Shown piece by piece: positions 38,694 to 56,415 of a stretch of DNA of 64,000 bases. The notes beneath the pieces are model-generated. The model was not told where the DNA came from and ran no database searches. It saw nothing but the letters and a program-made list of their open reading frames with translations. The stretch spans positions 222,399 through 286,398 of the forward strand of contig CAWGYY010000004.1 of the NCBI GenBank assembly GCA_963826945.1, written 5' to 3'. Made by a program: the position numbers and the translations under genes. Origin of the DNA: an uncultured Alphaproteobacteria bacterium (GTDB lineage Bacteria; Pseudomonadota; Alphaproteobacteria; Rhizobiales; Xanthobacteraceae). Every line of letters begins with the position of its first letter. Within the stretch, counting starts at the first letter, position 1.

Positions 38694-41600
38694 CTCAATG
38701 TCGAGCTCTCTCTCCCGAATTTTGGGCTGCCGCGCTCGCGGTCTTTATCCCTTGGCGAGGGGCTGCCGGATTCGACCGGCGCTCGGGATGGCACCCGCGC
38801 TGCTGGTGTGTTGGATCGCGGGCGGCGGCGGCTTTTTTCTTTTTAGCGTTGTGGCCGTCGAGCCACCGGGTCGATCGCGGCCGGCACCTGGCGTCGTCGA
38901 CCTTCGCTGGGGTACTCAATGTCGAGCTCTCTCTCCCGAATTTTGGGCTGCCGCGCTCGCGGTCTTTATCCCTTGGCGAGGGGCTGCCGGATTCGACCGG
39001 CGCTCGGGATGGCACCCGCGCTGCTGGTGTGTTGGATCGCGGGCGGCGGCGGCTTTTTTCTTTTTAGCGTTGTGGCCGTCGAGCCACCGGGTCGATCGCG
39101 GCCGGCACCTGGCGTCGTCGACCTTCGCTGGGGTACTCAATGTCGAGCTCTCTCTCCCGAATTTTGGGCTGCCGCGCTCGCGGTCTTTATCCCTTGGCGA
39201 GGGGCTGCCGGATTCGACCGGCGCTCGGGATGGCACCCGCGCTGCTGGTGTGTTGGATCGCGGGCGGCGGCGGCTTTTTTCTTTTTAGCGTTGTGGCCGT
39301 CGAGCCACCGGGTCGATCGCGGCCGGCACCTGGCGTCGTCGACCTTCGCTGGGGTACTCAATGTCGAGCTCTCTCTCCCGAATTTTGGGCTGCCGCGCTC
39401 GCGGTCTTTATCCCTTGGCGAGGGGCTGCCGGATTCGACCGGCGCTCGGGATGGCACCCGCGCTGCTGGTGTGTTGGATCGCGGGCGGCGGCGGCTTTTT
39501 TCTTTTTAGCGTTGTGGCCGTCGAGCCACCGGGTCGATCGCGGCCGGCACCTGGCGTCGTCGACCTTCGCTGGGGTACTCAATGTCGAGCTCTCTCTCCC
39601 GAATTTTGGGCTGCCGCGCTCGCGGTCTTTATCCCTTGGCGAGGGGCTGCCGGATTCGACCGGCGCTCGGGATGGCACCCGCGCTGCTGGTGTGTTGGAT
39701 CGCGGGCGGCGGCGGCTTTTTTCTTTTTAGCGTTGTGGCCGTCGAGCCACCGGGTCGATCGCGGCCGGCACCTGGCGTCGTCGACCTTCGCTGGGGTACT
39801 CAATGTCGAGCTCTCTCTCCCGAATTTTGGGCTGCCGCGCTCGCGGTCTTTATCCCTTGGCGAGGGGCTGCCGGATTCGACCGGCGCTCGGGATGGCACC
39901 CGCGCTGCTGGTGTGTTGGATCGCGGGCGGCGGCGGCTTTTTTCTTTTTAGCGTTGTGGCCGTCGAGCCACCGGGTCGATCGCGGCCGGCACCTGGCGTC
40001 GTCGACCTTCGCTGGGGTACTCAATGTCGAGCTCTCTCTCCCGAATTTTGGGCTGCCGCGCTCGCGGTCTTTATCCCTTGGCGAGGGGCTGCCGGATTCG
40101 ACCGGCGCTCGGGATGGCACCCGCGCTGCTGGTGTGTTGGATCGCGGGCGGCGGCGGCTTTTTTCTTTTTAGCGTTGTGGCCGTCGAGCCACCGGGTCGA
40201 TCGCGGCCGGCACCTGGCGTCGTCGACCTTCGCTGGGGTACTCAATGTCGAGCTCTCTCTCCCGAATTTTGGGCTGCCGCGCTCGCGGTCTTTATCCCTT
40301 GGCGAGGGGCTGCCGGATTCGACCGGCGCTCGGGATGGCACCCGCGCTGCTGGTGTGTTGGATCGCGGGCGGCGGCGGCTTTTTTCTTTTTAGCGTTGTG
40401 GCCGTCGAGCCACCGGGTCGATCGCGGCCGGCACCTGGCGTCGTCGACCTTCGCTGGGGTACTCAATGTCGAGCTCTCTCTCCCGAATTTTGGGCTGCCG
40501 CGCTCGCGGTCTTTATCCCTTGGCGAGGGGCTGCCGGATTCGACCGGCGCTCGGGATGGCACCCGCGCTGCTGGTGTGTTGGATCGCGGGCGGCGGCGGC
40601 TTTTTTCTTTTTAGCGTTGTGGCCGTCGAGCCACCGGGTCGATCGCGGCCGGCACCTGGCGTCGTCGACCTTCGCTGGGGTACTCAATGTCGAGCTCTCT
40701 CTCCCGAATTTTGGGCTGCCGCGCTCGCGGTCTTTATCCCTTGGCGAGGGGCTGCCGGATTCGACCGGCGCTCGGGATGGCACCCGCGCTGCTGGTGTGT
40801 TGGATCGCGGGCGGCGGCGGCTTTTTTCTTTTTAGCGTTGTGGCCGTCGAGCCACCGGGTCGATCGCGGCCGGCACCTGGCGTCGTCGACCTTCGCTGGG
40901 GTACTCAATGTCGAGCTCTCTCTCCCGAATTTTGGGCTGCCGCGCTCGCGGTCTTTATCCCTTGGCGAGGGGCTGCCGGATTCGACCGGCGCTCGGGATG
41001 GCACCCGCGCTGCTGGTGTGTTGGATCGCGGGCGGCGGCGGCTTTTTTCTTTTTAGCGTTGTGGCCGTCGAGCCACCGGGTCGATCGCGGCCGGCACCTG
41101 GCGTCGTCGACCTTCGCTGGGGTACTCAATGTCGAGCTCTCTCTCCCGAATTTTGGGCTGCCGCGCTCGCGGTCTTTATCCCTTGGCGAGGGGCTGCCGG
41201 ATTCGACCGGCGCTCGGGATGGCACCCGCGCTGCTGGTGTGTTGGATCGCGGGCGGCGGCGGCTTTTTTCTTTTTAGCGTTGTGGCCGTCGAGCCACCGG
41301 GTCGATCGCGGCCGGCACCTGGCGTCGTCGACCTTCGCTGGGGTACTCAATGTCGAGCTCTCTCTCCCGAATTTTGGGCTGCCGCGCTCGCGGTCTTTAT
41401 CCCTTGGCGAGGGGCTGCCGGATTCGACCGGCGCTCGGGATGGCACCCGCGCTGCTGGTGTGTTGGATCGCGGGCGGCGGCGGCTTTTTTCTTTTTAGCG
41501 TTGTGGCCGTCGAGCCACCGGGTCGATCGCGGCCGGCACCTGGCGTCGTCGACCTTCGCTGGGGTACTCAATGTCGAGCTCTCTCTCCCGAATTTTGGGC

Positions 41601-43037
41601 TGCCGCGCTCGCGGTCTTTATCCCTTGGCGAGGGGCTGCCGGATTCGACCGGCGCTCGGGATGGCACCCGCGCTGCTGGTGTGTTGGATCGCGGGCGGCG
41701 GCGGCTTTTTTCTTTTTAGCGTTGTGGCCGTCGAGCCACCGGGTCGATCGCGGCCGGCACCTGGCGTCGTCGACCTTCGCTGGGGTACTCAATGTCGAGC
41801 TCTCTCTCCCGAATTTTGGGCTGCCGCGCTCGCGGTCTTTATCCCTTGGCGAGGGGCTGCCGGATTCGACCGGCGCTCGGGATGGCACCCGCGCTGCTGG
41901 TGTGTTGGATCGCGGGCGGCGGCGGCTTTTTTCTTTTTAGCGTTGTGGCCGTCGAGCCACCGGGTCGATCGCGGCCGGCACCTGGCGTCGTCGACCTTCG
42001 CTGGGGTACTCAATGTCGAGCTCTCTCTCCCGAATTTTGGGCTGCCGCGCTCGCGGTCTTTATCCCTTGGCGAGGGGCTGCCGGATTCGACCGGCGCTCG
42101 GGATGGCACCCGCGCTGCTGGTGTGTTGGATCGCGGGCGGCGGCGGCTTTTTTCTTTTTAGCGTTGTGGCCGTCGAGCCACCGGGTCGATCGCGGCCGGC
42201 ACCTGGCGTCGTCGACCTTCGCTGGGGTACTCAATGTCGAGCTCTCTCTCCCGAATTTTGGGCTGCCGCGCTCGCGGTCTTTATCCCTTGGCGAGGGGCT
42301 GCCGGATTCGACCGGCGCTCGGGATGGCACCCGCGCTGCTGGTGTGTTGGATCGCGGGCGGCGGCGGCTTTTTTCTTTTTAGCGTTGTGGCCGTCGAGCC
42401 ACCGGGTCGATCGCGGCCGGCACCTGGCGTCGTCGACCTTCGCTGGGGTACTCAATGTCGAGCTCTCTCTCCCGAATTTTGGGCTGCCGCGCTCGCGGTC
42501 TTTATCCCTTGGCGAGGGGCTGCCGGATTCGACCGGCGCTCGGGATGGCACCCGCGCTGCTGGTGTGTTGGATCGCGGGCGGCGGCGGCTTTTTTCTTTT
42601 TAGCGTTGTGGCCGTCGAGCTACCGGGTCGATCGCGGCCGGCACCTGGCGTCGTCGACCTTCGCTGGGGTACTCAATGTCGAGCTCTCTCTCCCGAATTT
42701 TCGGCTGCCGCGCTCGCGGTCTTTATCCCTTGGCGAGGGGCTGCCGGATTCGACCGGCGCTCGGGATGGCACCCGCGCTGCTGGTGTGTTGGATCGCGGG
42801 CGGCGGCGGCTTTTTTCTTTTTAGCGTTGTGGCCGTCGAGCTACCGGGTCGATCGCGGCCGGCACCTGGCGTCGTCGACCTTCGCTGGGGTACTCAATGT
42901 CGAGCTCTCTCTCCCGAATTTTCCGGCTGCCGCGCTCGCGGTCTTTATCCCTTGGCGAGGGGCTGCCGGATTCGACCGGCGCTCGGGATGGCACCCGCGC
43001 TGCTGGTGTGTTGGATCGCGGGCGGCGGCGGCTTTTC
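38694..43037. repeat. tandem array, 221-bp unit x approx 19.6 copies, near-identical, non-coding
   Basis: ORF-track entries recur with an exact 221-nt offset (38919, 39140 ... 42676). I read the units directly. The only variants seen are at 42621, 42702, 42842 and 42923-42924. Every frame has stops. Confidence 0.97.
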
Positions 43038-43117: not shown

Positions 43118-43666
43118 CTACGCGTCAGCAATTGGATTATGCAAAGACTCAATTATTATGCAGTCAAGAAAACCGTCGAATTCCGACTTTTGACGGTCTT
43201 TCAACATGTAGCTGATCCAGCCCGCGTTTGCACCGTCGCGGACAAGAATTCTGCCGTAACCCCACTCGACCTTCGCCCAACAGTCGCGGATCAAGTTTTC
43301 GAGGGCAATAGCATCGAAGTGCGAGGGCAATTCAATTGCACAATGAATATGCCATCGACCTGTTGACGCGCCACGCTCCCATGAACGTAGTCCGCGGGCG
43401 CGGACCTCGCCTTTTTCCAGTACGGGTAATACACGAAGACGTTTGCCGTGCCGACGAAATGCAGATCCATATGCAGCTCTGTTGAGGAGGTTCATGAAGT
43501 GCCGAAAAGCGTGTCTGCACCGATAGTCGTCGGTCTTTACCCAACCGCCGCTGTCGGGCTGGTGGCCTTGCTTCAAGGTTAGCGTGACGTCGCAAAAGTC
43601 ACCCCAGCTGCTCGTATCGAACAAGTTTGATTTGGCGGATTCAAACGGATCAGATCGAACTTCCAT
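43118..43666 (-). CDS. HUH-type rolling-circle Rep-like protein (inovirus Gp2-like layout)
   Basis: 182 aa with motif I FCDVTLTLK, motif II GRWHIHCAIE (H-U-H) and motif III GWISYMLKD (Y-x-x-K) in the canonical order. Confidence 0.55.
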   Translation of the reverse strand: MEVRSDPFESAKSNLFDTSSWGDFCDVTLTLKQGHQPDSGGWVKTDDYRCRHAFRHFMNLLNRAAYGSAFRRHGKRLRVLPVLEKGEVRARGLRSWERGASTGRWHIHCAIELPSHFDAIALENLIRDCWAKVEWGYGRILVRDGANAGWISYMLKDRQKSEFDGFLDCIIIESLHNPIADA

Positions 43667-44138
43667 CGAATAGTTATTCGCATGTGTTACAGAGGTGATT
43701 TCACGAAGCTGCGAAAGCGACTTACAGCTTTCCGGAATTTATCGTCGGAGGCGGCATGCGGCCATCCATTACTCAGGGTACTGGTTCGAATTCAAGAAGC
43801 ATTAGCTCTCGCCGCGGTCTTTTTGTATTGTATAGTGAGCGCAGGGTTATGGGAATGCCCATTTTGCAACGGCGCGCCATCGAAAAAGTGCGACCGGCGT
43901 AGGTACACGCGGCGTTTCTTCGTGGAAGGCCTCACGGCAGTCGCTTGAGACCGGCGAGTTGTAGCTCTTTGCCGATCTCGCGGATCTCAAGGAGGCAAAG
44001 AGGTTGTCGGTTCGTAAAGCCGGCGGGCGACGAAGATCTCACCTCATGAAATGGACCCGCGATCGTGACGCGCTTTCGCATTCTTGGCAATTTGCAGATG
44101 TTGGATCCGATAGCGTAGTTCGAAAATGTCGAGGAACA

Positions 44139-45281
44139 CTACTCTTTTGCCTCCCGAATCATTCTCGAACCCGCCTTCCACTTCCTGGCTTTGACGCTTG
44201 CGGCCGTATTATATTCGGGCTTCTTGGTCACGTCACCGATGACAAGTACGCCTCCCTCGCGCGGAGCTTTGATCTTCGGGTGCTTGCCCCACTTTTCTGG
44301 ACGGTGCCACTCCAACCAAAACCGCATCGCCTTCATGTCCACTTTGCGAACGGTCTCTGGTATAGGGTTTCCGTTCTCATCCCTCAGGTAGGCGTCAGGG
44401 CCTTGATAACCGTGGTCCACGAGACCCTGGTCGATCTTGTAGACCACACGGCCTCGATAGCTTAGAACTTTGTCATAGCCAACAAATGCCCTTTCGAGCA
44501 TGCGGTCGAGGAGTTTTTGAACTGCCTCGTCGATCGCTAATTTGCAGAGTTCGTGAAATCTCCCCGTAATGTCTTGCCACTCGATGTCGTAACCGTCGTC
44601 GCCAGCCTCGCTGCGCCTTATCCAGTACGCAAGCGTCTTGCGGTGAATGCCCGCCTTGTTCGCTGCGTAATAATAAAAAGGGCATTCCGCGAGGGCGTCG
44701 AGGACAAGCAACATGAGCTCAGGGCAAAGCTTTGGGGTGGATCTCGCGATCCCCGCCGGCGGTTTTTGCTTCTTGAGTTGGCCCCGGCCGCTACGAACTC
44801 GTTTGCCGCCAATCGCCGCGAGTGCGGTTGTCTCTGTTTTAGGTTTCTCGGCCTCACTCGTGGCCTCCTTGCCGGCGGGCAGCGGCTCAGCTTTCGGCGT
44901 GGGCAGCGATGTCGGCTCGTGTGGAGGCGAGTGGTCTCCGGCCGGAACCTCGACCAACCCAGCGTGGTCTTCACCGTCGCCTTGCGGTTTTTCTGTCGTG
45001 AACTCGCATGCCGTTTTGAATTTGGGCGGCGCCTCGTTCTTGAGCAGCTCGATCGCGATCGGTTCAGCGTCCGTCACTTTCTCAGGCGATGCCCGGTGCG
45101 CGCGCAGCGCTGCGCCCTCCGGCGAGGTTTGGCTCACCATCGTTGTGGGGTCCCAAGTTCCTTCGCGCTTGCGGTGAAGTTCCTCGTGCTTGGCGACAAG
45201 TCGCCTCGTGGCGAGCGGCGCGGGGATGTGCTCAGTCATAGCATCCTCCTTCGATTCCTTGTCGCTCTTCTGCACGGGCAA
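44139..45281 (-). CDS. phage-derived protein with terminase-small-subunit-like C-terminal half
   Basis: 380 aa. The N-half is low-complexity and acidic/Pro-rich. The C-half reads ECPFYYYAANKAGIHRKTLAYWIRRSEAG...VDMKAMRFWLEWHRPEKWGKHPKI, an HTH plus the RKW..K.YG tail typical of small terminase / DNA-packaging proteins. Confidence 0.55.
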   Translation of the reverse strand: MPVQKSDKESKEDAMTEHIPAPLATRRLVAKHEELHRKREGTWDPTTMVSQTSPEGAALRAHRASPEKVTDAEPIAIELLKNEAPPKFKTACEFTTEKPQGDGEDHAGLVEVPAGDHSPPHEPTSLPTPKAEPLPAGKEATSEAEKPKTETTALAAIGGKRVRSGRGQLKKQKPPAGIARSTPKLCPELMLLVLDALAECPFYYYAANKAGIHRKTLAYWIRRSEAGDDGYDIEWQDITGRFHELCKLAIDEAVQKLLDRMLERAFVGYDKVLSYRGRVVYKIDQGLVDHGYQGPDAYLRDENGNPIPETVRKVDMKAMRFWLEWHRPEKWGKHPKIKAPREGGVLVIGDVTKKPEYNTAASVKARKWKAGSRMIREAKE

Positions 45282-45833: not shown

Positions 45834-46532
45834 TCAGTTGCCTGGAGCTTCGTTATTTGTCGAAATTCCTGGACCGGCGGTAGGCAAACTCAGACCCACA
45901 TTGGAGAACGGCAGTAATACGTGTCTCAGTTCAATATGGATTTTATTGGCCCGTTGGTGGCCCGTCGCGAAACGCTCGATACCCGCTATTGGTTGCGCCG
46001 AAGTAGGACCGGTAATGAGGCCTAATGGGACTTTCTGCGCGGCGACTGCTGCACCTAACTGTTTCAAGGCAAAGCCCAAGTCACCATCCATTACATATCC
46101 TAACATGCAGCCAACTGGGAGACCCTCCGCGTATTGCTCGGTTAGAAACCGCATCATCCCGTCGTTGACATAGCGTGTGGCCAGAGAGGCCCTGCCGTTA
46201 TTGGTAACATTCAGGCGCTTGCACTCATATGCGAGATATCGCTCTCGCTCCTGGTCTAACAGAACCGCGAAATCTATCTTGCCCTTGCTGAACTTCGCGC
46301 CGCCCGGGTGGGTTCCAAACGGCTCATGCTGATAGATCACCAGGTGGCAAATGCGCCTGACAATGGCATCTTTGGAAAGGAGATGAACGAGGTTGATTGT
46401 GATGGTGTCTTCTTCCGGCTGGCCGGATAACAAAGCTACGCACGCTGGCCAATGATGCAGGATGCGTTGCAAGAAACGCTCGTCGACCGTGATGAAGCGA
46501 TCCTTCCAGACTTGAGGATTGCCGACGATCAA
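45834..46532 (-). CDS. putative PD-(D/E)xK restriction-endonuclease-like protein
   Basis: 232 aa. Candidate catalytic pattern GKIDFAVLLDQERERYLAYECKRL (D ... E-x-K). The TTG start overlaps the stop of the upstream methyltransferase (TTGA). Confidence 0.55.
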   Translation of the reverse strand: MIVGNPQVWKDRFITVDERFLQRILHHWPACVALLSGQPEEDTITINLVHLLSKDAIVRRICHLVIYQHEPFGTHPGGAKFSKGKIDFAVLLDQERERYLAYECKRLNVTNNGRASLATRYVNDGMMRFLTEQYAEGLPVGCMLGYVMDGDLGFALKQLGAAVAAQKVPLGLITGPTSAQPIAGIERFATGHQRANKIHIELRHVLLPFSNVGLSLPTAGPGISTNNEAPGN

Positions 46533-49500
46533 GAAGCTCGCTCCCGACGAGCGTCAAGATCGATCGCGTGTTGCAGGTCCCCAGCGATCGAATCCGCATC
46601 GGACAAGGCGGCTGATCGCAGCCAAAAACGTCGCTGCATCGGCTTTACGAGATAAAGATTCTTACCAATGAAAACACGTAAGTCCGGCATTAGCTGGAAA
46701 TTGCCTGCGATAGGTTGATGAATGTGCTGCATAATTCTCGACAACGCATCGCCGAGAAGAACAACATCTTCCTCATTGTAGGCTAGTCCCTGATCGGAGC
46801 CGTTAAGGGCCAAACGCAGCACCCCAATATCCGCATTTTTGGCTTCGAGAGTGGCGTGAAGGCGATTTCCGCCCTGCAACCACTCATCGACACTACGCAT
46901 CAACGTTGCGGCATATTCTCGTCGCTCAGGTTCGGTAGGCGACTTCCATAAATCGGGGAAACTGCCTTGGTGCGGCTGAACGGCGGGCATTATGCGTTCA
47001 ATCATGTCATCGATGAGAATGATCTCATCATTGGACAGGCAAAAGTATTCGTAGGACCATCTATCGATTTCAGAGAGCGTCGTGCTGTCGTTCTGATCTG
47101 ATGTAAGCGGCAAGCCGAGGTTCGCGATCTCCCGATCGATCACAGCAATCAATTTTTCAGACGCAGCTTCCGCCCGTCTCGGCTCTGGCAGATCGCCGGA
47201 TGATGGAAACGGCAAATGGAGCAACTCCGACTGCTTCACCTCCGGCCGCTCCGAACCAAATGAAGCCGTGCCGTGGAATGCAAACCAGGCGGCGACCCGG
47301 CTATTGAGCAACGCCGCAAGAAGCTTGCCCCTTGCCTTTTCAGCGGGCGGGACAGTGACGCCCTGAATGATGTCCTGGAACGTCAGATCAGTTTCCGTGT
47401 ATGAAGCGCGAAGGCGCCCAAGAGAGGTCGTGCGGGGCACGAGAATGCGCGCACCCGAGAACGCAGCTTCAAAGCCTTTTCGGCGAACGCGTTTCGAGTG
47501 CGCTGGCCGGAGATAGGAAACCGTCTGCGCGATGGGACGGAAGGCGTCGATGGGCAGGTCGGGAAGCGTACCAACGAGCTTGCTCATCGAATATTTGGAA
47601 GGGCGCTGACCTTCCTGCGGTTCATTGTATGGCTGATAGCCCATTCCAATGACCCATTGCCCAGCCGCGCTTTGCCGACTACGACTGAGGCTCCCGTATT
47701 CTTTTATCAGGAAGCTAAGCCTCGGTAATTGCGAAAAATAGCTGAAGAGCTTTGCCTCAGGTTCGTGCATCCATAAACGACGTTTGAAGGCCAGGGCGTC
47801 GGACTGCGCGCTGGTTGAAGTCATGATGAACCTATCCGCGCTGCTGAGCGTGATCATTCGCTTGATTTGTAGGTTCAAATCGGCCTTCGGTGCCCAATAT
47901 TCAAAGTGATATTCGGAATCTTGTTCGTGATTAGGTACGTACATAATCAGAGCGGTCGGGCGGATGGCGCCGTCGAACAATTGGAAACGCAAGTCAGCGA
48001 AATTGATAATCCGACGGACGCGGCTTTCCCGAATGAGGCGCTTGCGGGCTGAAAGTGAACTGTCGGCGTGATTGTGTAGGAAGCCCATTGCCGGAAGGAG
48101 AAAGGCAGCTAATCCATCAGGTCGCAGGAGCCGCAAAGCCTTCCACACAAAGGCCCATGCGTCTTCGCGGCCCGGCATTGGCAAGCCATGCTTCCGGCAC
48201 CATCGTACGGATGAACGGTTGGGGCCGCGCCAACTCGTCCAGGGTGGGTTTCCGACGATCACGTTGAAGACAGATGTCGCGGGGTCGGAATCGTCAAAGA
48301 AATCACGGTGAACAAGCGTGTCGCCCCAAAGTTCGGGCAGTATCTTCTTGTTCTTGACCAACACGCGAAGATCGGGCGGTTCCACCTCTTCGAGAAGGGC
48401 TACATACAACGAAAAGACGGCGACCCGTACTGCGCCTCCATTGAGATCCCATCCGTGAATGCGCCGCAGCATGGCGACCAAGCTGTCCCAACGAATTTTT
48501 TTGGCCCGGTGCCTTACTCTCCAATTCTCGCAAAGCCGTTGAAACGAACGCACCAAAAAGACGCCCGAGCCACATGCCGGGTCGAGGAACTGGCCCCTTT
48601 CTTTAACCACTGGAGAGAGTAACTCCCAAAACTGCGAGACCACGGTATCCGCGAGATACATGGGTGTGTAGTACGCGCCTTGCGCTTTACGGTCTTCCTC
48701 CCGCTCACCGAGAAAGCGATCATAGACTGCGCTTACCAATTCGATTGGAATGAAACGAAAGTCGTATCCCCAAAATCGATATTGACCACCCTTCGCCATT
48801 TCCTCGCGTCCGCTTCGAAAGCTCGCAAGCACGTCAAGGTGTTCCACTTTAACTGATGGTGCTTTTGCGCGCGGATCGAACGAGCACGGCGCGACGAAAA
48901 GATTGCCGTTGAAATCATCTTTAAGCGTCGCAAATAGCAAGCTGAGATATTTCACATCTCTCCGTGCGAGCAACGATGAAAAGCTATCGGCCGCGTCGCG
49001 AGTCGCGTCCTTAAAATAATCCGCGGTGATGATTTTCCTATCTTCAAGATAAGCAATAAACATCGTCTGAATGAGCAACGCTTGCGCAGCGTCGGGCGAC
49101 AGGCTTTTGCAAAGCGATTTATGCAACTCGGTCAGGTTGTCGAGCAGAACTTGGTCAATGCGCTCCTTCGGCCGAAAGAAATCCGCATGTTCCTTCCAGA
49201 GGCGCCCGGATTCCGCTCCATAGACAATATTGCAAATCTTAAGTGCGTCGGCGGTAGCGTTGAGCGCCTCAATCAGGCAGCGTTGATCAAACTCATGGCC
49301 CCACTCTCTCTGAGGTGTTCTTGCAAGAGAATAAGCGCGTAGCGTGTCGCCAGCCGTAACGAGAAGAAGACTAGCGAGACCCTGGTTCCAGAGCGCACCG
49401 TGAATATTGACAACGCTTGCTGTGTCGAACTGGGCGACGTTCAGAAGCGCGATCGTTGGGACACCTTGAACGCAAAAGATACCCGACAGGCCGAGTTCGT

Positions 49501-50131
49501 CGAGTGCGGTACGGATCGCCAGCGCATGAGGCGTGTCTACTACCGCGTCGGCTGTCTCGTAGAACTCCGGCGCATGCCGGTTGGCAAGGCTTAGCCGTTC
49601 TTTCCATTCCGGCGCCAGCGGAAGCGCGCTCACCTCACTCATGCCCGTTGCCTCCGCGCTCGTCTTTCGTGTGCGGAGAGTCGGAATAGATGGACGCTGC
49701 TGACTGGCGGCCAAGGGAAGCGTGCGAGACATCGCGTCTCGCACCAAGGCAATAATGGGGCTTAGCGGACAAACGATGACGAGGTTCTGACCAGTAGGCT
49801 CTTGGGTGGCTTCTATAATTCGGCAGGTTCGCTGCTGAATATCCACAAGGAGTGTTTTGCCTTCCAGCGTGACCCACGAATTGGCGTTGCAAATTTCCAC
49901 CGCCGCCTGAGAGATTTCCGGCAATAGGCCGACGCGAATGCCGCATTGATCGGTCAGGCGCCGAAGTATGCCGGCCGCGAGCAGATCGTCGATTGAAAAT
50001 CGGGAGGAATATCTTTTGCGCTGAGCGAATGGGGGCAAAACGCGCTTCCAGTGGCGAAATGTTTCCACCGAAATGCCGAGCGTGCTGCGAAGCTGAGTTT
50101 GGCTGAATTCCACGGGCCCAATCCCAAACAA
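46529..50131 (-). CDS. large gamma-class N6-adenine DNA methyltransferase (type IIG/IIL- or PglX-like) with N-terminal MerR-like HTH extension
   Basis: 1200-aa intact ORF. Motifs: GAYYTPMYLADTVV, motif I LDPACGSGVFLV, motif IV VIVGNPPWTSW. Helical region: LLIQTMFIAYLEDRKII. N-terminal approx 160 aa: QTQLRSTLGISVETFRHWKRVL...RFSIDDLLAAGILRRL. Confidence 0.85.
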   Translation of the reverse strand: MFGIGPVEFSQTQLRSTLGISVETFRHWKRVLPPFAQRKRYSSRFSIDDLLAAGILRRLTDQCGIRVGLLPEISQAAVEICNANSWVTLEGKTLLVDIQQRTCRIIEATQEPTGQNLVIVCPLSPIIALVRDAMSRTLPLAASQQRPSIPTLRTRKTSAEATGMSEVSALPLAPEWKERLSLANRHAPEFYETADAVVDTPHALAIRTALDELGLSGIFCVQGVPTIALLNVAQFDTASVVNIHGALWNQGLASLLLVTAGDTLRAYSLARTPQREWGHEFDQRCLIEALNATADALKICNIVYGAESGRLWKEHADFFRPKERIDQVLLDNLTELHKSLCKSLSPDAAQALLIQTMFIAYLEDRKIITADYFKDATRDAADSFSSLLARRDVKYLSLLFATLKDDFNGNLFVAPCSFDPRAKAPSVKVEHLDVLASFRSGREEMAKGGQYRFWGYDFRFIPIELVSAVYDRFLGEREEDRKAQGAYYTPMYLADTVVSQFWELLSPVVKERGQFLDPACGSGVFLVRSFQRLCENWRVRHRAKKIRWDSLVAMLRRIHGWDLNGGAVRVAVFSLYVALLEEVEPPDLRVLVKNKKILPELWGDTLVHRDFFDDSDPATSVFNVIVGNPPWTSWRGPNRSSVRWCRKHGLPMPGREDAWAFVWKALRLLRPDGLAAFLLPAMGFLHNHADSSLSARKRLIRESRVRRIINFADLRFQLFDGAIRPTALIMYVPNHEQDSEYHFEYWAPKADLNLQIKRMITLSSADRFIMTSTSAQSDALAFKRRLWMHEPEAKLFSYFSQLPRLSFLIKEYGSLSRSRQSAAGQWVIGMGYQPYNEPQEGQRPSKYSMSKLVGTLPDLPIDAFRPIAQTVSYLRPAHSKRVRRKGFEAAFSGARILVPRTTSLGRLRASYTETDLTFQDIIQGVTVPPAEKARGKLLAALLNSRVAAWFAFHGTASFGSERPEVKQSELLHLPFPSSGDLPEPRRAEAASEKLIAVIDREIANLGLPLTSDQNDSTTLSEIDRWSYEYFCLSNDEIILIDDMIERIMPAVQPHQGSFPDLWKSPTEPERREYAATLMRSVDEWLQGGNRLHATLEAKNADIGVLRLALNGSDQGLAYNEEDVVLLGDALSRIMQHIHQPIAGNFQLMPDLRVFIGKNLYLVKPMQRRFWLRSAALSDADSIAGDLQHAIDLDARRERAS

Positions 50132-50210
50132 GTGTGGGGTGAACCCCAGAACGGACTGTAGGTCTAAGAGGTTAACCGGTCAATAACTTTGTACCTGATT
50201 TGTTCTATTG

Positions 50211-51873: not shown

Positions 51874-53095
51874 ATGCCGATTGCATCGAATCCCGGACCG
51901 ACAGCAATTGTGGCTGGAGGCGGAATTGGCGGTTTGGCGGCCGCCTTGGGTCTCGCCAATAACGGTTGCCGCGTCACCGTGCTCGAACAGGCCGACGAGT
52001 TCGGCGAAATCGGCGCCGGTATTCAGATCGGGCCGAACGCCTTCCACGCCATGGACTATCTCGGCGTCGGCGATGCCGGCCGCGCCAAGGCGGTCTACAT
52101 CGATGATCTGATCATGATGGACGGCATGACCGGGGAACAGGTGTTTCGCGGTCCTCTGAACGAACCGTTCCGCAAATATTTCGGCAACCCCTATGCCGTG
52201 ATCCACCGCGCCGACCTGCATGGGACGCTGCTCGACGCCTGCCGAGCGCATAAAGCGATTACCCTCGTCAACAGAGAACGGGTTGTTGCCTACGAGAACA
52301 CGGCAAACGGCGCGCGCTTACGAACCGAGGCCGGTCGCGTCTATGAAGCCGATGCGGTGATCGGTGCCGATGGCGTGCGTTCCAAAATCCGCGAGCAGCT
52401 CACCGGGGGCGATCAACTGCGCGTTTCCGGCCATGTGGCCTATCGCGCGGTACTGCCGATCGAGAAAATGCCGGAGGACTTGCGCTGGAACGCGGCCGCG
52501 CTGTGGGCCGGCCCGAAATGCCATATGGTGCATTATCCGCTGCAGGGCTGGCGCTCATTCAATTTGGTGGCCACCTTCGTCACCGACATCGAGCACGTCG
52601 GCAGCAACGAGCCGGGCACGCGGGAAGAGGTGCTTGGCCGCTTCGCGAATATCGTGCCGAAAGCACGCAAGCTGTTGGAAATTCCGACGCGAGTGGCGGC
52701 GTTGGGTGCTCGCCGACCGCGACCCGATCGGCAATTGGACCGACGGTCGCGTCACGCTGCTGGGAGATGCCGCACACCCGACGTACCAATATTTTGCTCA
52801 AGGCGCCTGCATGGCGATGGAGGATGCGGTTTGTCTTGCCGATAAATTTGCCAGGAGCGGTGGCGACTTCGCCGCGGCTTTCCAGGCTTATCAGGACGAG
52901 CGCATTCCGCGCGCGTACCGTGTGGTGCTGTCCTCACGCGAGCTCGGCCGGGTCTATCACGCCGATGGCGTTGAACGCTTGGTGCGCAACGCCTGGCTTA
53001 GGGGCAAAACGCCGGAGCAGTTCTACAGCAGCATGCAGTGGTTGTACGGCGGAAACGGTCTCGTCGGCGCCGGACGGCAACGCGCCGCCGCCTGA
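51874..53095 (+). pseudogene. FAD-dependent aromatic hydroxylase (3-hydroxybenzoate 6-hydroxylase / salicylate hydroxylase-like), 1-nt insertion near 52690
   Basis: IVAGGGIGGLAAALGL...DAVIGADGVRSKIR in ORF 51874..52845. It continues as EWRRWVLADRDPIGNWTDGRVTLLGDAAHPTYQYFAQGACMAMEDA in ORF 52364..53095. Confidence 0.8.
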
Positions 53096-53167
53096 TCCTC
53101 GCGCGCTGCCCCGTCGTCGGACAGTGCCGCGCAGTTAACTTTGCCGTCACATGGAGGAAGGAAGCAC

Positions 53168-54212
53168 ATGAGCGCGCTTGGAACATTGAGCGAATTGCCG
53201 ACTGACTATGTCGACGGGCTAACCGCTCACAATCTGGTGCCGCTGTGGCCGAGCCTGCGCAAAGCGCTGCCGCACGGCGCTCCGTTTCGCCGGACACGGC
53301 CGGTGGTCTGGCATTATGCCGACGCGCGGCCTCGACTGCTGGAAGCCGGTGCGCTGACACCGATCGAGAAGGCCGAGCGTCGCGTACTGGTTCTCGCCAA
53401 TCCGGGCCTTGGGCTCGAAAACATGCAGGCAACGCCCTCGATCTATATTGGTCTGCAATTGATCATGCCCGGAGAAACGGCGCCCAATCACCGCCATACA
53501 CCGAGCGCCGTGCGGTTTGTGATCGAGGGCGAGGGCGGCTTTACCATCGTCGATGGCGAGAAGCTGCCGATGGAGCGCGGCGATCTGATCCTGACGCCGG
53601 CGCTCCTTTGGCACGAACACCGCCACGAGGGCTCCGGCCCGGTGATCTGGCTCGACGCACTCGATTTGCCCACAGTTTTCGCGCAAGAGGCTTCCTATGC
53701 CCTCGAAGGGCCGCCGCAAGCCGTGCGCAACCAGCCCGATCACTCGCAGACCCATTATCGGAAGGCGGGACTGCTGCCGTACCGCACGCTCGGCGGCCCG
53801 CGCGCTGCTTATCCGCTGCTGCGCTATTCGTGGAAAGAAGTCCGCGAGGCGCTGCAGTCGCTGGCGAAGTGTGACCGAAGCCGGCGAAGTTGTGCATTTG
53901 GCTTACGTAAATCCCGAGACCGGTCTTGAATGCTTGCCGGTGCTCGGCTTCTCGTCGATGATGCTGCGACCGGGTGAGATTGCGAAGCCGCCGCGGCGTT
54001 CTGCTTCGGCCGTGCTGCATGTGATCGAGGGTGAAGTCGAGGCGGAAATCGACGGCGTCACGCTTCGCGCGGATACCAATGACACCGTGGCGGTGCCGAC
54101 CCACGCCAAGGTGACGATGGCCAACAAATCGGCGCGCAACCCGGCTTTTATCTTCCAGGTCGATGATGCCCCGATGCAGCGCAAGCTCGGCTTTTTCGAG
54201 CTGTTCAACTGA
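53168..54212 (+). pseudogene. gentisate 1,2-dioxygenase (bicupin), 1-nt insertion near 53870
   Basis: [36 protein letters not shown]...WHEHRHEG in frame 1. It continues as [18 protein letters not shown]...SASAVLHVIEGEVEAEIDG in ORF 53697..54212. Confidence 0.85.
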
Positions 54213-54810: not shown

Positions 54811-56415
54811 CTAACCGGATACGGATACATGCCCTTTGATCAGATCGGCGCCCTTCTCTCCGATCATGATGCTTGGTGCGTTGGTGTTGCCGCTCGGGAT
54901 GGTAGGCATCACCGAGGCATCGATGACACGCAAGCCGTCGATGCCGCGCACCCGCAGCTGATCGTCCACCACAGCCATCGGATCGCTGCCCATCTTGCAG
55001 GTGCCGACCCAGTGATGCTGCGACTGCGCGGTTCGCCGCGCGTAATCGAGAATCTCATCGTCGGTGCGGCAATCCGGGCCCGGAATCACTTCGCGCACGA
55101 TCCGCGACTTCAGCGGCTCGGTGGCGAAAATCCGCCGCATCATCCGTACGCCATTGATCACCGATTGGCGATCCCACTCGGCGTCGAGATAATTCGCGAC
55201 AATGATCGGCCGGTCGTTCGGGTCAGCCGAGCGCAGCGTAACTTTGCCTCGCGAATGCGGCCGCAGCGGCGAACACGACGATCCGATCGCCGGCGTCGAT
55301 CCGATCACCAGCGTTCCGGCTTTGCTGAATTCCCAGCTCACGGGCCGAAAGAAGATTTGCGTGTCCGGCCGTTCCGAGCCAGGCACGACCCTGACCCATG
55401 CGCAGGCTTGAGACGCCCCGGTCGTCAGCAAACCGCGATGTGTCAGCATGTAGTAGACGCCGTGCAGATAAACCCGCAGCCCGCGCAACTCCTTGTTGAT
55501 CGAACTGTCTTCCGTCGAATTGCAGGTGTGATGGATGTAGACGTGATCCTGCAGATTTTCGCCGACGCCGGGAAGATCCGCGATGACGGGAATGCCCAAT
55601 TCGCTCAACCTTGCTGCGGGACCAATCCCGGAACGCATCAGCACACGTGGTGAATTGAACACGCCAGCGGCGACGATGATCTCCTTGCCGGCCTCCTCGA
55701 CATGCAGTTCACCGCCGCGGCTGTACTCGACCGCAACGGCGCGTCCATCCTTGCATCTGAGCCGATGCACCAGCGCGCCGGTCACGATTGCCAGATTGGC
55801 GCGTCCTCGCGCCGGGGTGAGGAACGCATCGGCGCTCGGTGTGGCGCTTGCCTTTATAGATGGTGAACTGGATGTAGCCGACGCCTTCCTGGCGCTCGCC
55901 GTTGATGTCATCGTTGCGGCGAAGACCGGCATTCACGCCGGCCTCGATGAAGTCCGCGAGGCCGGCAGCTTGATCATCGGATCGCTGACGGCGAGCACTC
56001 CGTTCCGGCCGTGATAGTCGCTTGGCTCGCCTTCGCGGCGCTCTGATTTCTTGAAATAGGCGAGCACGTTTTCCCAGTCCCAGCCGCGATTGCCGAGCTG
56101 CCGCCAGCCGTCATAATCCTCCGGATGGCCGCGGACATAGGCCATGCCGTTGATCAGGCTGGTGCCGCCCAAGCCGCGCCCACGCGGCGCGTAAACCGAC
56201 CGGCCGCCAAGGTTCGGCTCCGGCTCGGTCGAATAGCCCCAGTTCAGTTTGCCTGGAAAGATCAGCCGGCCGACGCCCGAAGGCATGCCGACCCAGATGC
56301 TTCTGGGGCGCGGTCCGGCCTCCAGCAGCAGCACGCGTACGGCAGGATCTTCGGACAGCCTGCTGGCCACGACGCAGCCGGCAGAGCCTGCACCGATGAT
56401 AATGTAGTCGAACAT
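54811..56415 (-). pseudogene. GMC family oxidoreductase (choline-dehydrogenase-like), at least 2 frameshifts (about 55960 and about 55840)
   Basis: MFDYIIIGAGSAGCVVASRLSEDP... (ORF 55933..56415), GLADFIEAGVNAGLRRNDDINGERQEGVGYIQFT (third frame) and SADAFLTPARGRANLAIVTG...HHWVGTCKMG...GNTNAPSIMIGEKGAD (ORF 54811..55932). Confidence 0.85.

Follow-up and report, generated by a model that had tools for sequence, protein, structure and literature searches.

The window examined here is a stretch of 64,000 nucleotides (nt) from an uncultured Alphaproteobacteria bacterium of the Xanthobacteraceae (assembly GCA_963826945.1, contig CAWGYY010000004.1, positions 222,399 to 286,398). On its minus strand it carries a compact cassette of three genes, which we call UP, MT, and NU in gene order: a small putative regulator, a large predicted N6-adenine DNA methyltransferase, and a small putative nuclease of the PD-(D/E)xK type (Table 1). 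We regard the cassette as a probable restriction-modification-like module serving defense or addiction. The more specific reading that we favor, with somewhat less assurance, is that of a mobile three-gene restriction-modification-type operon in which NU supplies the nuclease in trans. The cassette is a real and widespread unit of restriction-modification-like character that has gone unannotated, and the NU family is large, undescribed, and inseparable from the MT family.

Conservation, linkage, and spread of the cassette

MT and NU are an obligate pair. When 185,579 species-representative genomes were surveyed by NU, 178 stretches contained an NU relative and 80 loci were kept; in all 80, an MT homolog lies directly upstream on the same strand. 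The reciprocal survey of metagenomes by MT (identity 41–85%) placed NU directly downstream of MT in 74 of 74 informative loci. The two are separate open reading frames (ORFs) in all loci, and they are tightly joined: across 81 distinct loci, the MT stop and the NU start overlap by 1 nt in 66 (TGATG or TAATG) and by 4 nt in ten, or 76 of 81 together. NU and MT identities co-vary across loci (r = 0.94), and the MT–NU architecture is retained on plasmid p5 of Sagittula sp. MA-2, where NU is 33% identical. The junction in the window reads cTTGAt, with the MT stop TGA overlapping the NU start TTG; this is the overlap already described in an earlier sequence-only reading of this DNA. UP is a less constant companion, detected in 67 of 85 genome loci and 49 of 69 informative metagenome loci.

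Homologs of NU fall into more than 1,000 clusters, all of them standalone proteins of ~210–235 amino acids (aa), and those with any name at all are called “hypothetical.” A family of this size means that these are genes far beyond chance. The hosts span Alpha-, Gamma-, and Deltaproteobacteria, Nitrospirae, Chlorobi, Actinobacteria, Acidobacteria, Gemmatimonadetes, Spirochaetes, Verrucomicrobia, and Bacteroidetes. Plasmid-borne copies include those on a 10-kb Hoeflea plasmid, on B. elkanii pBel61, and on a Mameliella plasmid, and some cassettes adjoin conjugation or transposition genes. The distribution is typical of a horizontally moving, self-contained restriction-modification module.

A phage-borne module was also considered and ruled out, as a scan of viral contigs returned two loci only. 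On pBel61 (L087:8980-13110), a 1,376-aa protein with an Eco57I restriction-modification methylase domain is encoded directly downstream of UP-MT-NU, with genes for an N1pC/P60 hydrolase and a helicase next in line; this may be a true defense cluster on that plasmid.

Gene content and the extra T

The sequence-only reading had described two genes, the first of them encoding a 1,200-aa methyltransferase. Both ORFs do exist in the window, but comparison with a second contig and with homolog lengths indicates that MT has 1,037 aa and that the module comprises three genes, UP-MT-NU, the 1,200-aa protein being a frameshift fusion of UP and MT. The second contig, L005, comes from a public metagenome and is 99.2% identical to the window over 11.5 kb, with ~90 differing positions. 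Four of these fall inside the cassette, namely three synonymous C/T differences in MT and one extra T in the window (position 49677). With this T, the final 12 codons of UP are read in another frame and its stop is bypassed, which produces the apparent 1,200-aa ORF.

When this T is deleted in silico, the first ~163 codons of the large ORF give way to a separate 157-aa UP gene. The restored protein ends in ...IPTPAHERRARRQRA, matching the C-termini of its homologs, and with this end (...RRQRA) the UP stop overlaps the ATG of MT (ATGA). Separate UP genes of 152–158 aa occupy the same position in related loci, including those of Mesorhizobium sp. RIZ17 (152 aa) and Methylosinus sp. LW3 (154 aa). 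We place the start of MT at ATG 49642 because its best 120 homologs are ~1,030–1,040 aa long, the longest reaching 1,087 aa, and because a 1,037-aa protein on record (P0121) is 100% identical to it. A GGAGG lies 8 nt before this ATG (spacer CAACGGGC).

The alternative is that the T reflects a real +1 mutation and not a sequencing error, so that the 1,200-aa ORF would be a genuine UP–MT fusion. The ORF is uninterrupted in the window, and the window and L005 are different assemblies, as their three synonymous MT sites and the ~90 positions over 11.5 kb indicate, and the T could therefore represent genuine variation. We nevertheless consider a genuine fusion rather unlikely, since none of the best 120 MT homologs approaches 1,200 aa and since removing a single letter gives back both a conserved C-terminus and the ATGA overlap. 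In addition, at least three housekeeping genes at 51.8–56.4 kb are likewise split across frames, which suggests assembly indel errors; such errors are thus plausible in the window, and this bears on the T at 49677. In any case a separate MT would be made, because MT keeps its own GGAGG–ATG start.

The methyltransferase

By its sequence, MT is a gamma-class N6-adenine methyltransferase belonging to the architectural class of type IIG, MmeI, and PglX enzymes. Motifs X, I, and IV are invariant, and in that order, among 23 MT homologs (alignment A4). The protein begins with an alpha/beta domain that lacks a catalytic motif, and continues through a helical spacer, the methyltransferase core, a TaqI_C-like target-recognition region, and a conserved C-terminal domain. 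Two Pfam families matched above their cutoffs (N6_Mtase, 2e-16; Eco57I, 2.5e-10), and TaqI_C and MmeI_Mtase matched weakly. The best PADLOC model was REase_MTase_IIG (7.9e-79), which is co-linear from near the N-terminus with a score far from member level. The BREX PglX models of NCBIfam scored 12–58 bits against cutoffs of 400–900, and the models of the MADS and Alw26I families fell far below theirs.

The AlphaFold2 model of MT (predicted local distance difference test, pLDDT, 72) was compared with solved structures using Foldseek. It matched CamA (1e-14), BpuSI (2.5e-14 over 1005 columns), MmeI (2.8e-11 over 867 columns), the PglX/BrxX structures 8c45 (1.8e-13) and 9ewz (2.6e-13; both ~1000 columns), and M.BseCI. 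For BpuSI and MmeI, however, the template-modeling (TM) scores are only 0.28–0.45, at a model pLDDT of 72. A profile search of the PDB with the MT alignment found the methyltransferase core only. Pfam, PADLOC, and Foldseek thus agree on the class that the sequence-only reading had given the large ORF (gamma-class, IIG/IIL/PglX-like), and the strings that it had cited (AYYTP, DPACGSGVFLV, GNPPW, FIAYLEDRKII, KIDFAV, and YECKRL) are all found in the ORFs.

At the level of sequence, MT has no recognizable nuclease site. Residues 1–140 of alignment A4 contain no invariant acidic or lysine motif and no conserved D/E-x-K; what is invariant there is W13, R22, P25, Y28, P38-H39-A40, P62-T63, and L84-L89. 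The alpha/beta domain itself (residues ~40–105) is well conserved, and it has no match to MmeI_N or another nuclease family in Pfam and no sequence match to a nuclease family. Neither this domain nor the conserved C-terminal domain of ~240 aa has an assigned role. One stretch, GIFCVQGVPTIALLNV, may share the pattern of the D...ExK strands of MmeI, with the catalytic residues replaced, and we treat it as a tentative lead.

The putative nuclease

NU is probably a nuclease, as judged from its conserved residues and predicted structure. Among 40 NU sequences that have diverged to 27% identity, nine columns are invariant, and four of these are E41, D87, E103, and K105. The AlphaFold2 model (pLDDT 77.5) runs from helix 41–54 through strands 64–67, 88–93, and 98–107 and helices 118–123 and 125–129 to strand 140–147. 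E41 opens the first helix, D87 stands immediately before strand 88–93, and E103 and K105 lie within strand 98–107. This predicted secondary structure fits the alpha-beta-beta-beta-alpha-beta order of PD-(D/E)xK nucleases as well as the placement of their residues. Two hints below significance point the same way: the best PDB match of the NU model is a type II restriction endonuclease, and PDDEXK_9 is the one Pfam family reached by more than one NU member. The assignment rests on the motif and the predicted topology because NU gave no sequence or fold match. The nuclease core proposed in the sequence-only reading therefore stands insofar as D...E-x-K is invariant and located on the expected predicted strands, but structure searches left its fold unconfirmed.

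The same reading did not recognize the pair as a named multi-gene system, and PADLOC, Pfam, and NCBIfam indeed contain no match for the pair. We also considered that NU might have arisen from the MT N-terminal domain by duplication or by splitting off. This was rejected, with an hhalign probability of <1% for every MT segment.

UP and the regulatory region

We lean toward UP being a regulator. Its N-terminal pattern, (Y/F)TxxQLRxx(I/L)(G/S)(I/V)SxExFRxW, appears to resemble MerR- or excisionase-type helix-turn-helix (HTH) proteins. The family matches are weak and sub-threshold (MerR_1, 0.0038; HTH_17, 0.0044; wHTH, 0.037, the wHTH family being found in four members), and there was no significant match to known C proteins.

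The stretch ahead of UP is conserved as well. In an alignment of 57 distinct loci, the elements GAACA..AC, GGGGTnnAC, and CCC are kept at 70% or more. The region holds GAACA-type half-sites, a -35/-10 pair, and a conserved palindrome, GGGGTnnACCCC (also written GGGGTTCACCCC), which follows the -10 hexamer and precedes the start of UP. By analogy with the controller proteins of type II systems, the simplest reading is that a dimeric HTH repressor or activator would bind this palindrome. Alternatively, it could form a hairpin in the 5' leader.

On Sagittula p5 (L086:4529-4819), which has the most distant of the cassettes examined, the position upstream of MT is taken by a gene for a 96-aa hypothetical protein, with a 93-nt gap, instead of the ~155-aa UP. 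From this arrangement, the regulator gene may be exchangeable.

Proposed mechanism and its alternatives

The three genes look co-transcribed, and NU is translationally coupled to MT. In the mechanism that we propose, MT would read the DNA sequence with its own target-recognition region, methylate adenine at N6, and so mark the host DNA, a role that we assign because its methyltransferase motifs are invariant and its fold has matches. NU would be the PD-(D/E)xK restriction nuclease that cuts unmarked incoming DNA; we base this role on the invariant E...D...ExK, which falls on the appropriate predicted strands, and not on a fold match. MT and NU would together make up a type IIG enzyme divided over two chains. 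At the position of the BpuSI or MmeI nuclease, MT would have its N-terminal domain, without catalytic residues, and NU would provide the active site in trans, relying on MT for target finding much as Res relies on Mod or as the small subunit relies on the large one in heterodimers of the BtsI/BsrDI type. UP, a putative small HTH protein, probably controls its own operon by binding the GGGGTnnACCCC palindrome where transcription starts, and would thereby time or limit expression.

We put the dependence of NU on MT at even chances. A role for NU as a subunit of MT is favored because the pairing is obligate in both directions and MT retains N- and C-terminal domains that are otherwise roleless. 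It is also favored because the marking of one strand at asymmetric sites, which is usual for enzymes of the MmeI/PglX type, suits a nuclease that is coupled to recognition better than an independent dimer. Two loci are relevant here. In the isolate genomes of Paenochrobactrum pullorum LMG 28095 (L017:6451-8651) and Acetobacter estunensis AV380 (L058:6489-8648), the catalytic domain of MT is deleted, and the NU ORF is intact together with E41, D87, E103, and K105. The intact NU beside a broken MT weakly supports dependence.

The most far-reaching form of this interpretation is that the cassette represents an unrecognized but widespread sub-type, a split type IIG system in which MT keeps a catalytically dead domain at the nuclease position, a separate and fast-evolving PD-(D/E)xK subunit does the cutting, and the operon has its own HTH controller and operator. 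We offer this tentatively and rate it slightly below an even chance. The sequence-only reading had likewise raised a type IIG enzyme with the nuclease split off, an idea that fits the motif-free N-terminal domain of MT.

Several observations weigh against these interpretations. The NU model is of moderate confidence, and residues 71–84, just before D87, are poorly predicted. Foldseek found no significant neighbor of NU in the PDB or BFVD (best E 0.05 and 0.03; TM 0.2–0.3); the top PDB match, the type II endonuclease EcoO109I, is non-significant (E = 0.05, TM 0.24), and a McrBC chain, 6hz4_M, which is probably the McrC subunit, was matched at E = 0.27. Single-sequence and profile searches with NU were empty in the PDB, Pfam, PADLOC, NCBIfam, and PHROGs, and the sole Pfam family matched by more than one member was PDDEXK_9 (E = 0.13, 2 of 40 members). 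A degenerate nuclease at the N-terminus of MT is a conjecture: the domain has no MmeI_N match, the long BpuSI and PglX alignments have low TM scores (0.28–0.40), and hhalign detected no homology between it and NU. In P. pullorum and A. estunensis, the same deletions have taken the promoter or the coupling with them, and the intact NU may simply be silent there. With the frame of UP disrupted, regulation in the window may be disturbed, unless a sequencing error accounts for the extra T. For all members, the restriction role is a prediction from sequence.

The main alternative is an orthodox type II system, with NU as an autonomous, sequence-specific homodimeric endonuclease, MT as its unusually large cognate methyltransferase, and UP as a classical controller. 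NU is as large as type IIP endonucleases usually are and has a D...ExK motif, and adjoining or overlapping methyltransferase and endonuclease genes, a small HTH gene, and a palindromic box are typical of such operons. Type II endonucleases are often without detectable relatives, which would also explain the empty NU searches. Against it stands the architecture of MT, which is that of the single-chain IIG, IIL, and PglX enzymes; these usually mark one strand of an asymmetric site, a poor protection against an independent dimeric endonuclease. MT also retains its two conserved terminal domains, which have no assigned role, and in two loci NU survives deletion of the MT catalytic domain with all of its candidate residues, which for an autonomous endonuclease should be lethal unless NU is silent. 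On balance we judge the orthodox scheme unlikely.

We consider it improbable that the cassette has nothing to do with restriction, with MT as an orphan or regulatory methyltransferase and NU as a non-nucleolytic accessory (for specificity, loading, or regulation) or a repair-type enzyme whose D...ExK is coincidental or serves another function: no fold or sequence match puts NU among nucleases, CamA, the solved methyltransferase nearest to MT, is an orphan, and BREX-related methyltransferases need accessory loaders (MANTIS preprint, 10.64898/2026.09.23.753747), but four of the nine invariant NU residues form the canonical E / D / ExK set with canonical spacing and predicted strand positions, the patchy, cross-phylum, plasmid-borne spread suits a selfish or defense module better than a housekeeping regulator, and the strict translational coupling is conserved.

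Comparison with known systems

Among known systems, the type IIG and IIL enzymes (BpuSI and MmeI; Eco57I-like) share with MT the same core, helical spacer, and TaqI_C-like recognition region in one chain. Their fused N-terminal PD-(D/E)xK endonuclease was not found in MT; the cassette instead has, downstream of MT, the gene for a coupled putative nuclease of 210–230 aa and, upstream of it in most loci, a small HTH gene. BREX PglX/BrxX proteins are similar to MT in size and fold, with weak hidden Markov model matches. MT reaches 58 bits against a PglX cutoff of 400, however, and its partner is a small nuclease-like protein rather than ATPases and a phosphatase. No BrxA, BrxB, BrxC, BrxL, or PglZ is present in the window or in related loci, and neighborhood scans found no BREX, DISARM, or type I partners, as the sequence-only reading had stated.

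The orthodox type II systems with a controller (PvuII, Esp1396I, and AhdI) also have a small HTH gene, a methyltransferase gene, an endonuclease-sized gene, and a promoter palindrome. In the cassette, by contrast, MT is a 1,037-aa multi-domain protein of the IIG kind, UP (~155 aa) is unlike known C proteins, and it is doubtful from the sequences that NU is independent of MT in the way of orthodox type II endonucleases.

In type III systems (Mod and Res) and in BtsI, BsrDI, and Nt.BspD6I, a large subunit competent for recognition targets a nuclease subunit without recognition of its own. The obligate pairing and coupling of MT and NU are alike, and we use type III and the heterodimeric type IIS enzymes as a working analogy only. 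The Res subunit has a helicase/ATPase, whereas NU, at 232 aa, has no helicase or ATPase match in Pfam, and searches of the PDB showed no sequence or fold similarity of NU to the small subunits of heterodimeric IIS enzymes.

CamA of Clostridioides difficile is the best match to the MT core and recognition region in both solved structure and sequence. It is an orphan enzyme of 577 aa, whereas MT has an additional N-terminal part of ~300 aa, the C-terminal domain, and an obligate partner. An assignment to MADS/MANTIS (Gao_RL) was rejected: the MAD2 models match the methyltransferase core only (27 bits against a cutoff of 720), and no MtsA, MtsB, or MtsD flanks the cassette, while MANTIS is a four-gene system that needs all three (10.64898/2026.09.23.753747).

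Literature searches, with REBASE outside their scope, found no description of a split type IIG enzyme, of an accessory nuclease for such methyltransferases, or of the NU family. The supplements of a prokaryotic epigenome survey (PMC4752239), in which six genera were sought for a methylation motif (Methylosinus, Tropicibacter, ‘japonic’, Brevundimonas, Novosphingobium, and Mesorhizobium), include no cassette host.

If confirmed, the cassette would bring a new endonuclease family, now unannotated in more than 1,000 clusters, and a new restriction-modification architecture. As a natural intermediate, it would link single-chain type IIG enzymes to the multi-subunit type II and III systems and help to explain how recognition and cleavage modules are exchanged, and enzyme engineering could gain a nuclease module that can be targeted. 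A systematic mis-annotation would be mended as well, as these loci are presently labeled “N-6 DNA methylase / HsdM family” and “hypothetical protein”; if our reading is true, defense annotation tools call a single-gene type IIG system or an orphan methyltransferase and overlook the nuclease. No concept is overturned by this, given that restriction endonucleases without relatives beside methyltransferases are a familiar situation.

Genomic surroundings of the cassette

The positions of the features discussed here are collected in Table 1.

Table 1. Features of the UP-MT-NU cassette and its flank, in coordinates of the window
Feature	Position	Strand	Description
NU	45834..46532	-	232 aa, putative PD-(D/E)xK nuclease, TTG start
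NU ORF	45834..46532	-	232 codons, ORF listing
NU E41	46410-46412	-	candidate catalytic residue
NU D87	46272-46274	-	candidate catalytic residue
NU E103-C-K105	46218-46226	-	candidate catalytic residues
MT	46529..49642	-	1037 aa, predicted gamma-class N6-adenine DNA methyltransferase
MT motif IV, NPPW	48239-48250	-	invariant
MT motif I, DPACGSG	48563-48583	-	invariant
MT motif X, GAYYTP	48662-48679	-	invariant
Large ORF	46529..50131	-	1200 codons from TTG, ORF listing
UP	49639..50113	-	157 aa without the extra T, GTG start at 50113, putative MerR/excisionase-like HTH controller
Extra T	49677	-	GACTCTCCGC in the window versus GACTC-CCGC in L005; pairwise alignment, difference map
Operon regulatory region	50135..50207	-	conserved upstream of UP; putative promoter/operator
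Palindrome TGGGGTTCACCCCA	50148-50135	-	between -10 and UP start
-10, TACAGT	50160-50155	-	promoter scan; 17-nt spacer to -35
-35, TTGACC	50183-50178	-	promoter scan
GAACA-type half-sites, TAGAACAAATCAGGTAC	50207-50191	-	upstream alignment
Terminase-small-subunit-like ORF	44139-45281		adjoins the cassette; PHROG 4044, 2e-9
Rep ORF2/G2P-like ORF	43118-43666	-	182 aa; PF23343, 6.6e-5, 23.6 bits versus cutoff 27.8

The cassette has a GC content of 0.544, compared with 0.595 for the window, and values just as low occur elsewhere in the window. One flank is formed by the terminase-like and Rep-like ORFs, and the other by genes of aromatic catabolism (FAD monooxygenase, cupin dioxygenase, MarR, and GMC oxidoreductase). 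The sequence-only reading had placed the cassette in an AT-rich segment with phage and insertion sequence (IS) debris, as in a defense island. The segment is modestly richer in AT and does contain the terminase-like ORF and the sub-threshold Rep-like ORF, but no IS elements were found, with no systematic search made for them. The term “defense island” is not justified, as no other defense genes were detected near the cassette (its neighbors have no PADLOC match) and the flanks are a small phage or replicon remnant and the catabolic genes. Within the window there is no Rfam RNA family, and no tRNA genes mark an integration site.

On the catabolic side, the genes for the FAD monooxygenase (51874-53095), a cupin/gentisate-dioxygenase-like protein (53141-54212), and the GMC oxidoreductase (54811-56415) each appear as two overlapping or abutting ORFs in different frames, which would reflect either a pseudogene or an assembly indel. 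On the other side, a tandem array at 38694-43036 consists of 19.6 head-to-tail copies of a 221-bp unit at 99% identity, covering 4.3 kb. The array has a GC content of ~0.66, an AT skew of -0.49, a period that is not a multiple of three, and no Rfam match, and L005 has fewer copies of the unit. Flanked by this array and the terminase-like ORF, the Rep-like ORF may be what is left of a small replicon or phage. The stretch at 43500-44500, in and beside the terminase-like ORF, is the most divergent from L005, with 61 of the 90 differences and most of the indels.

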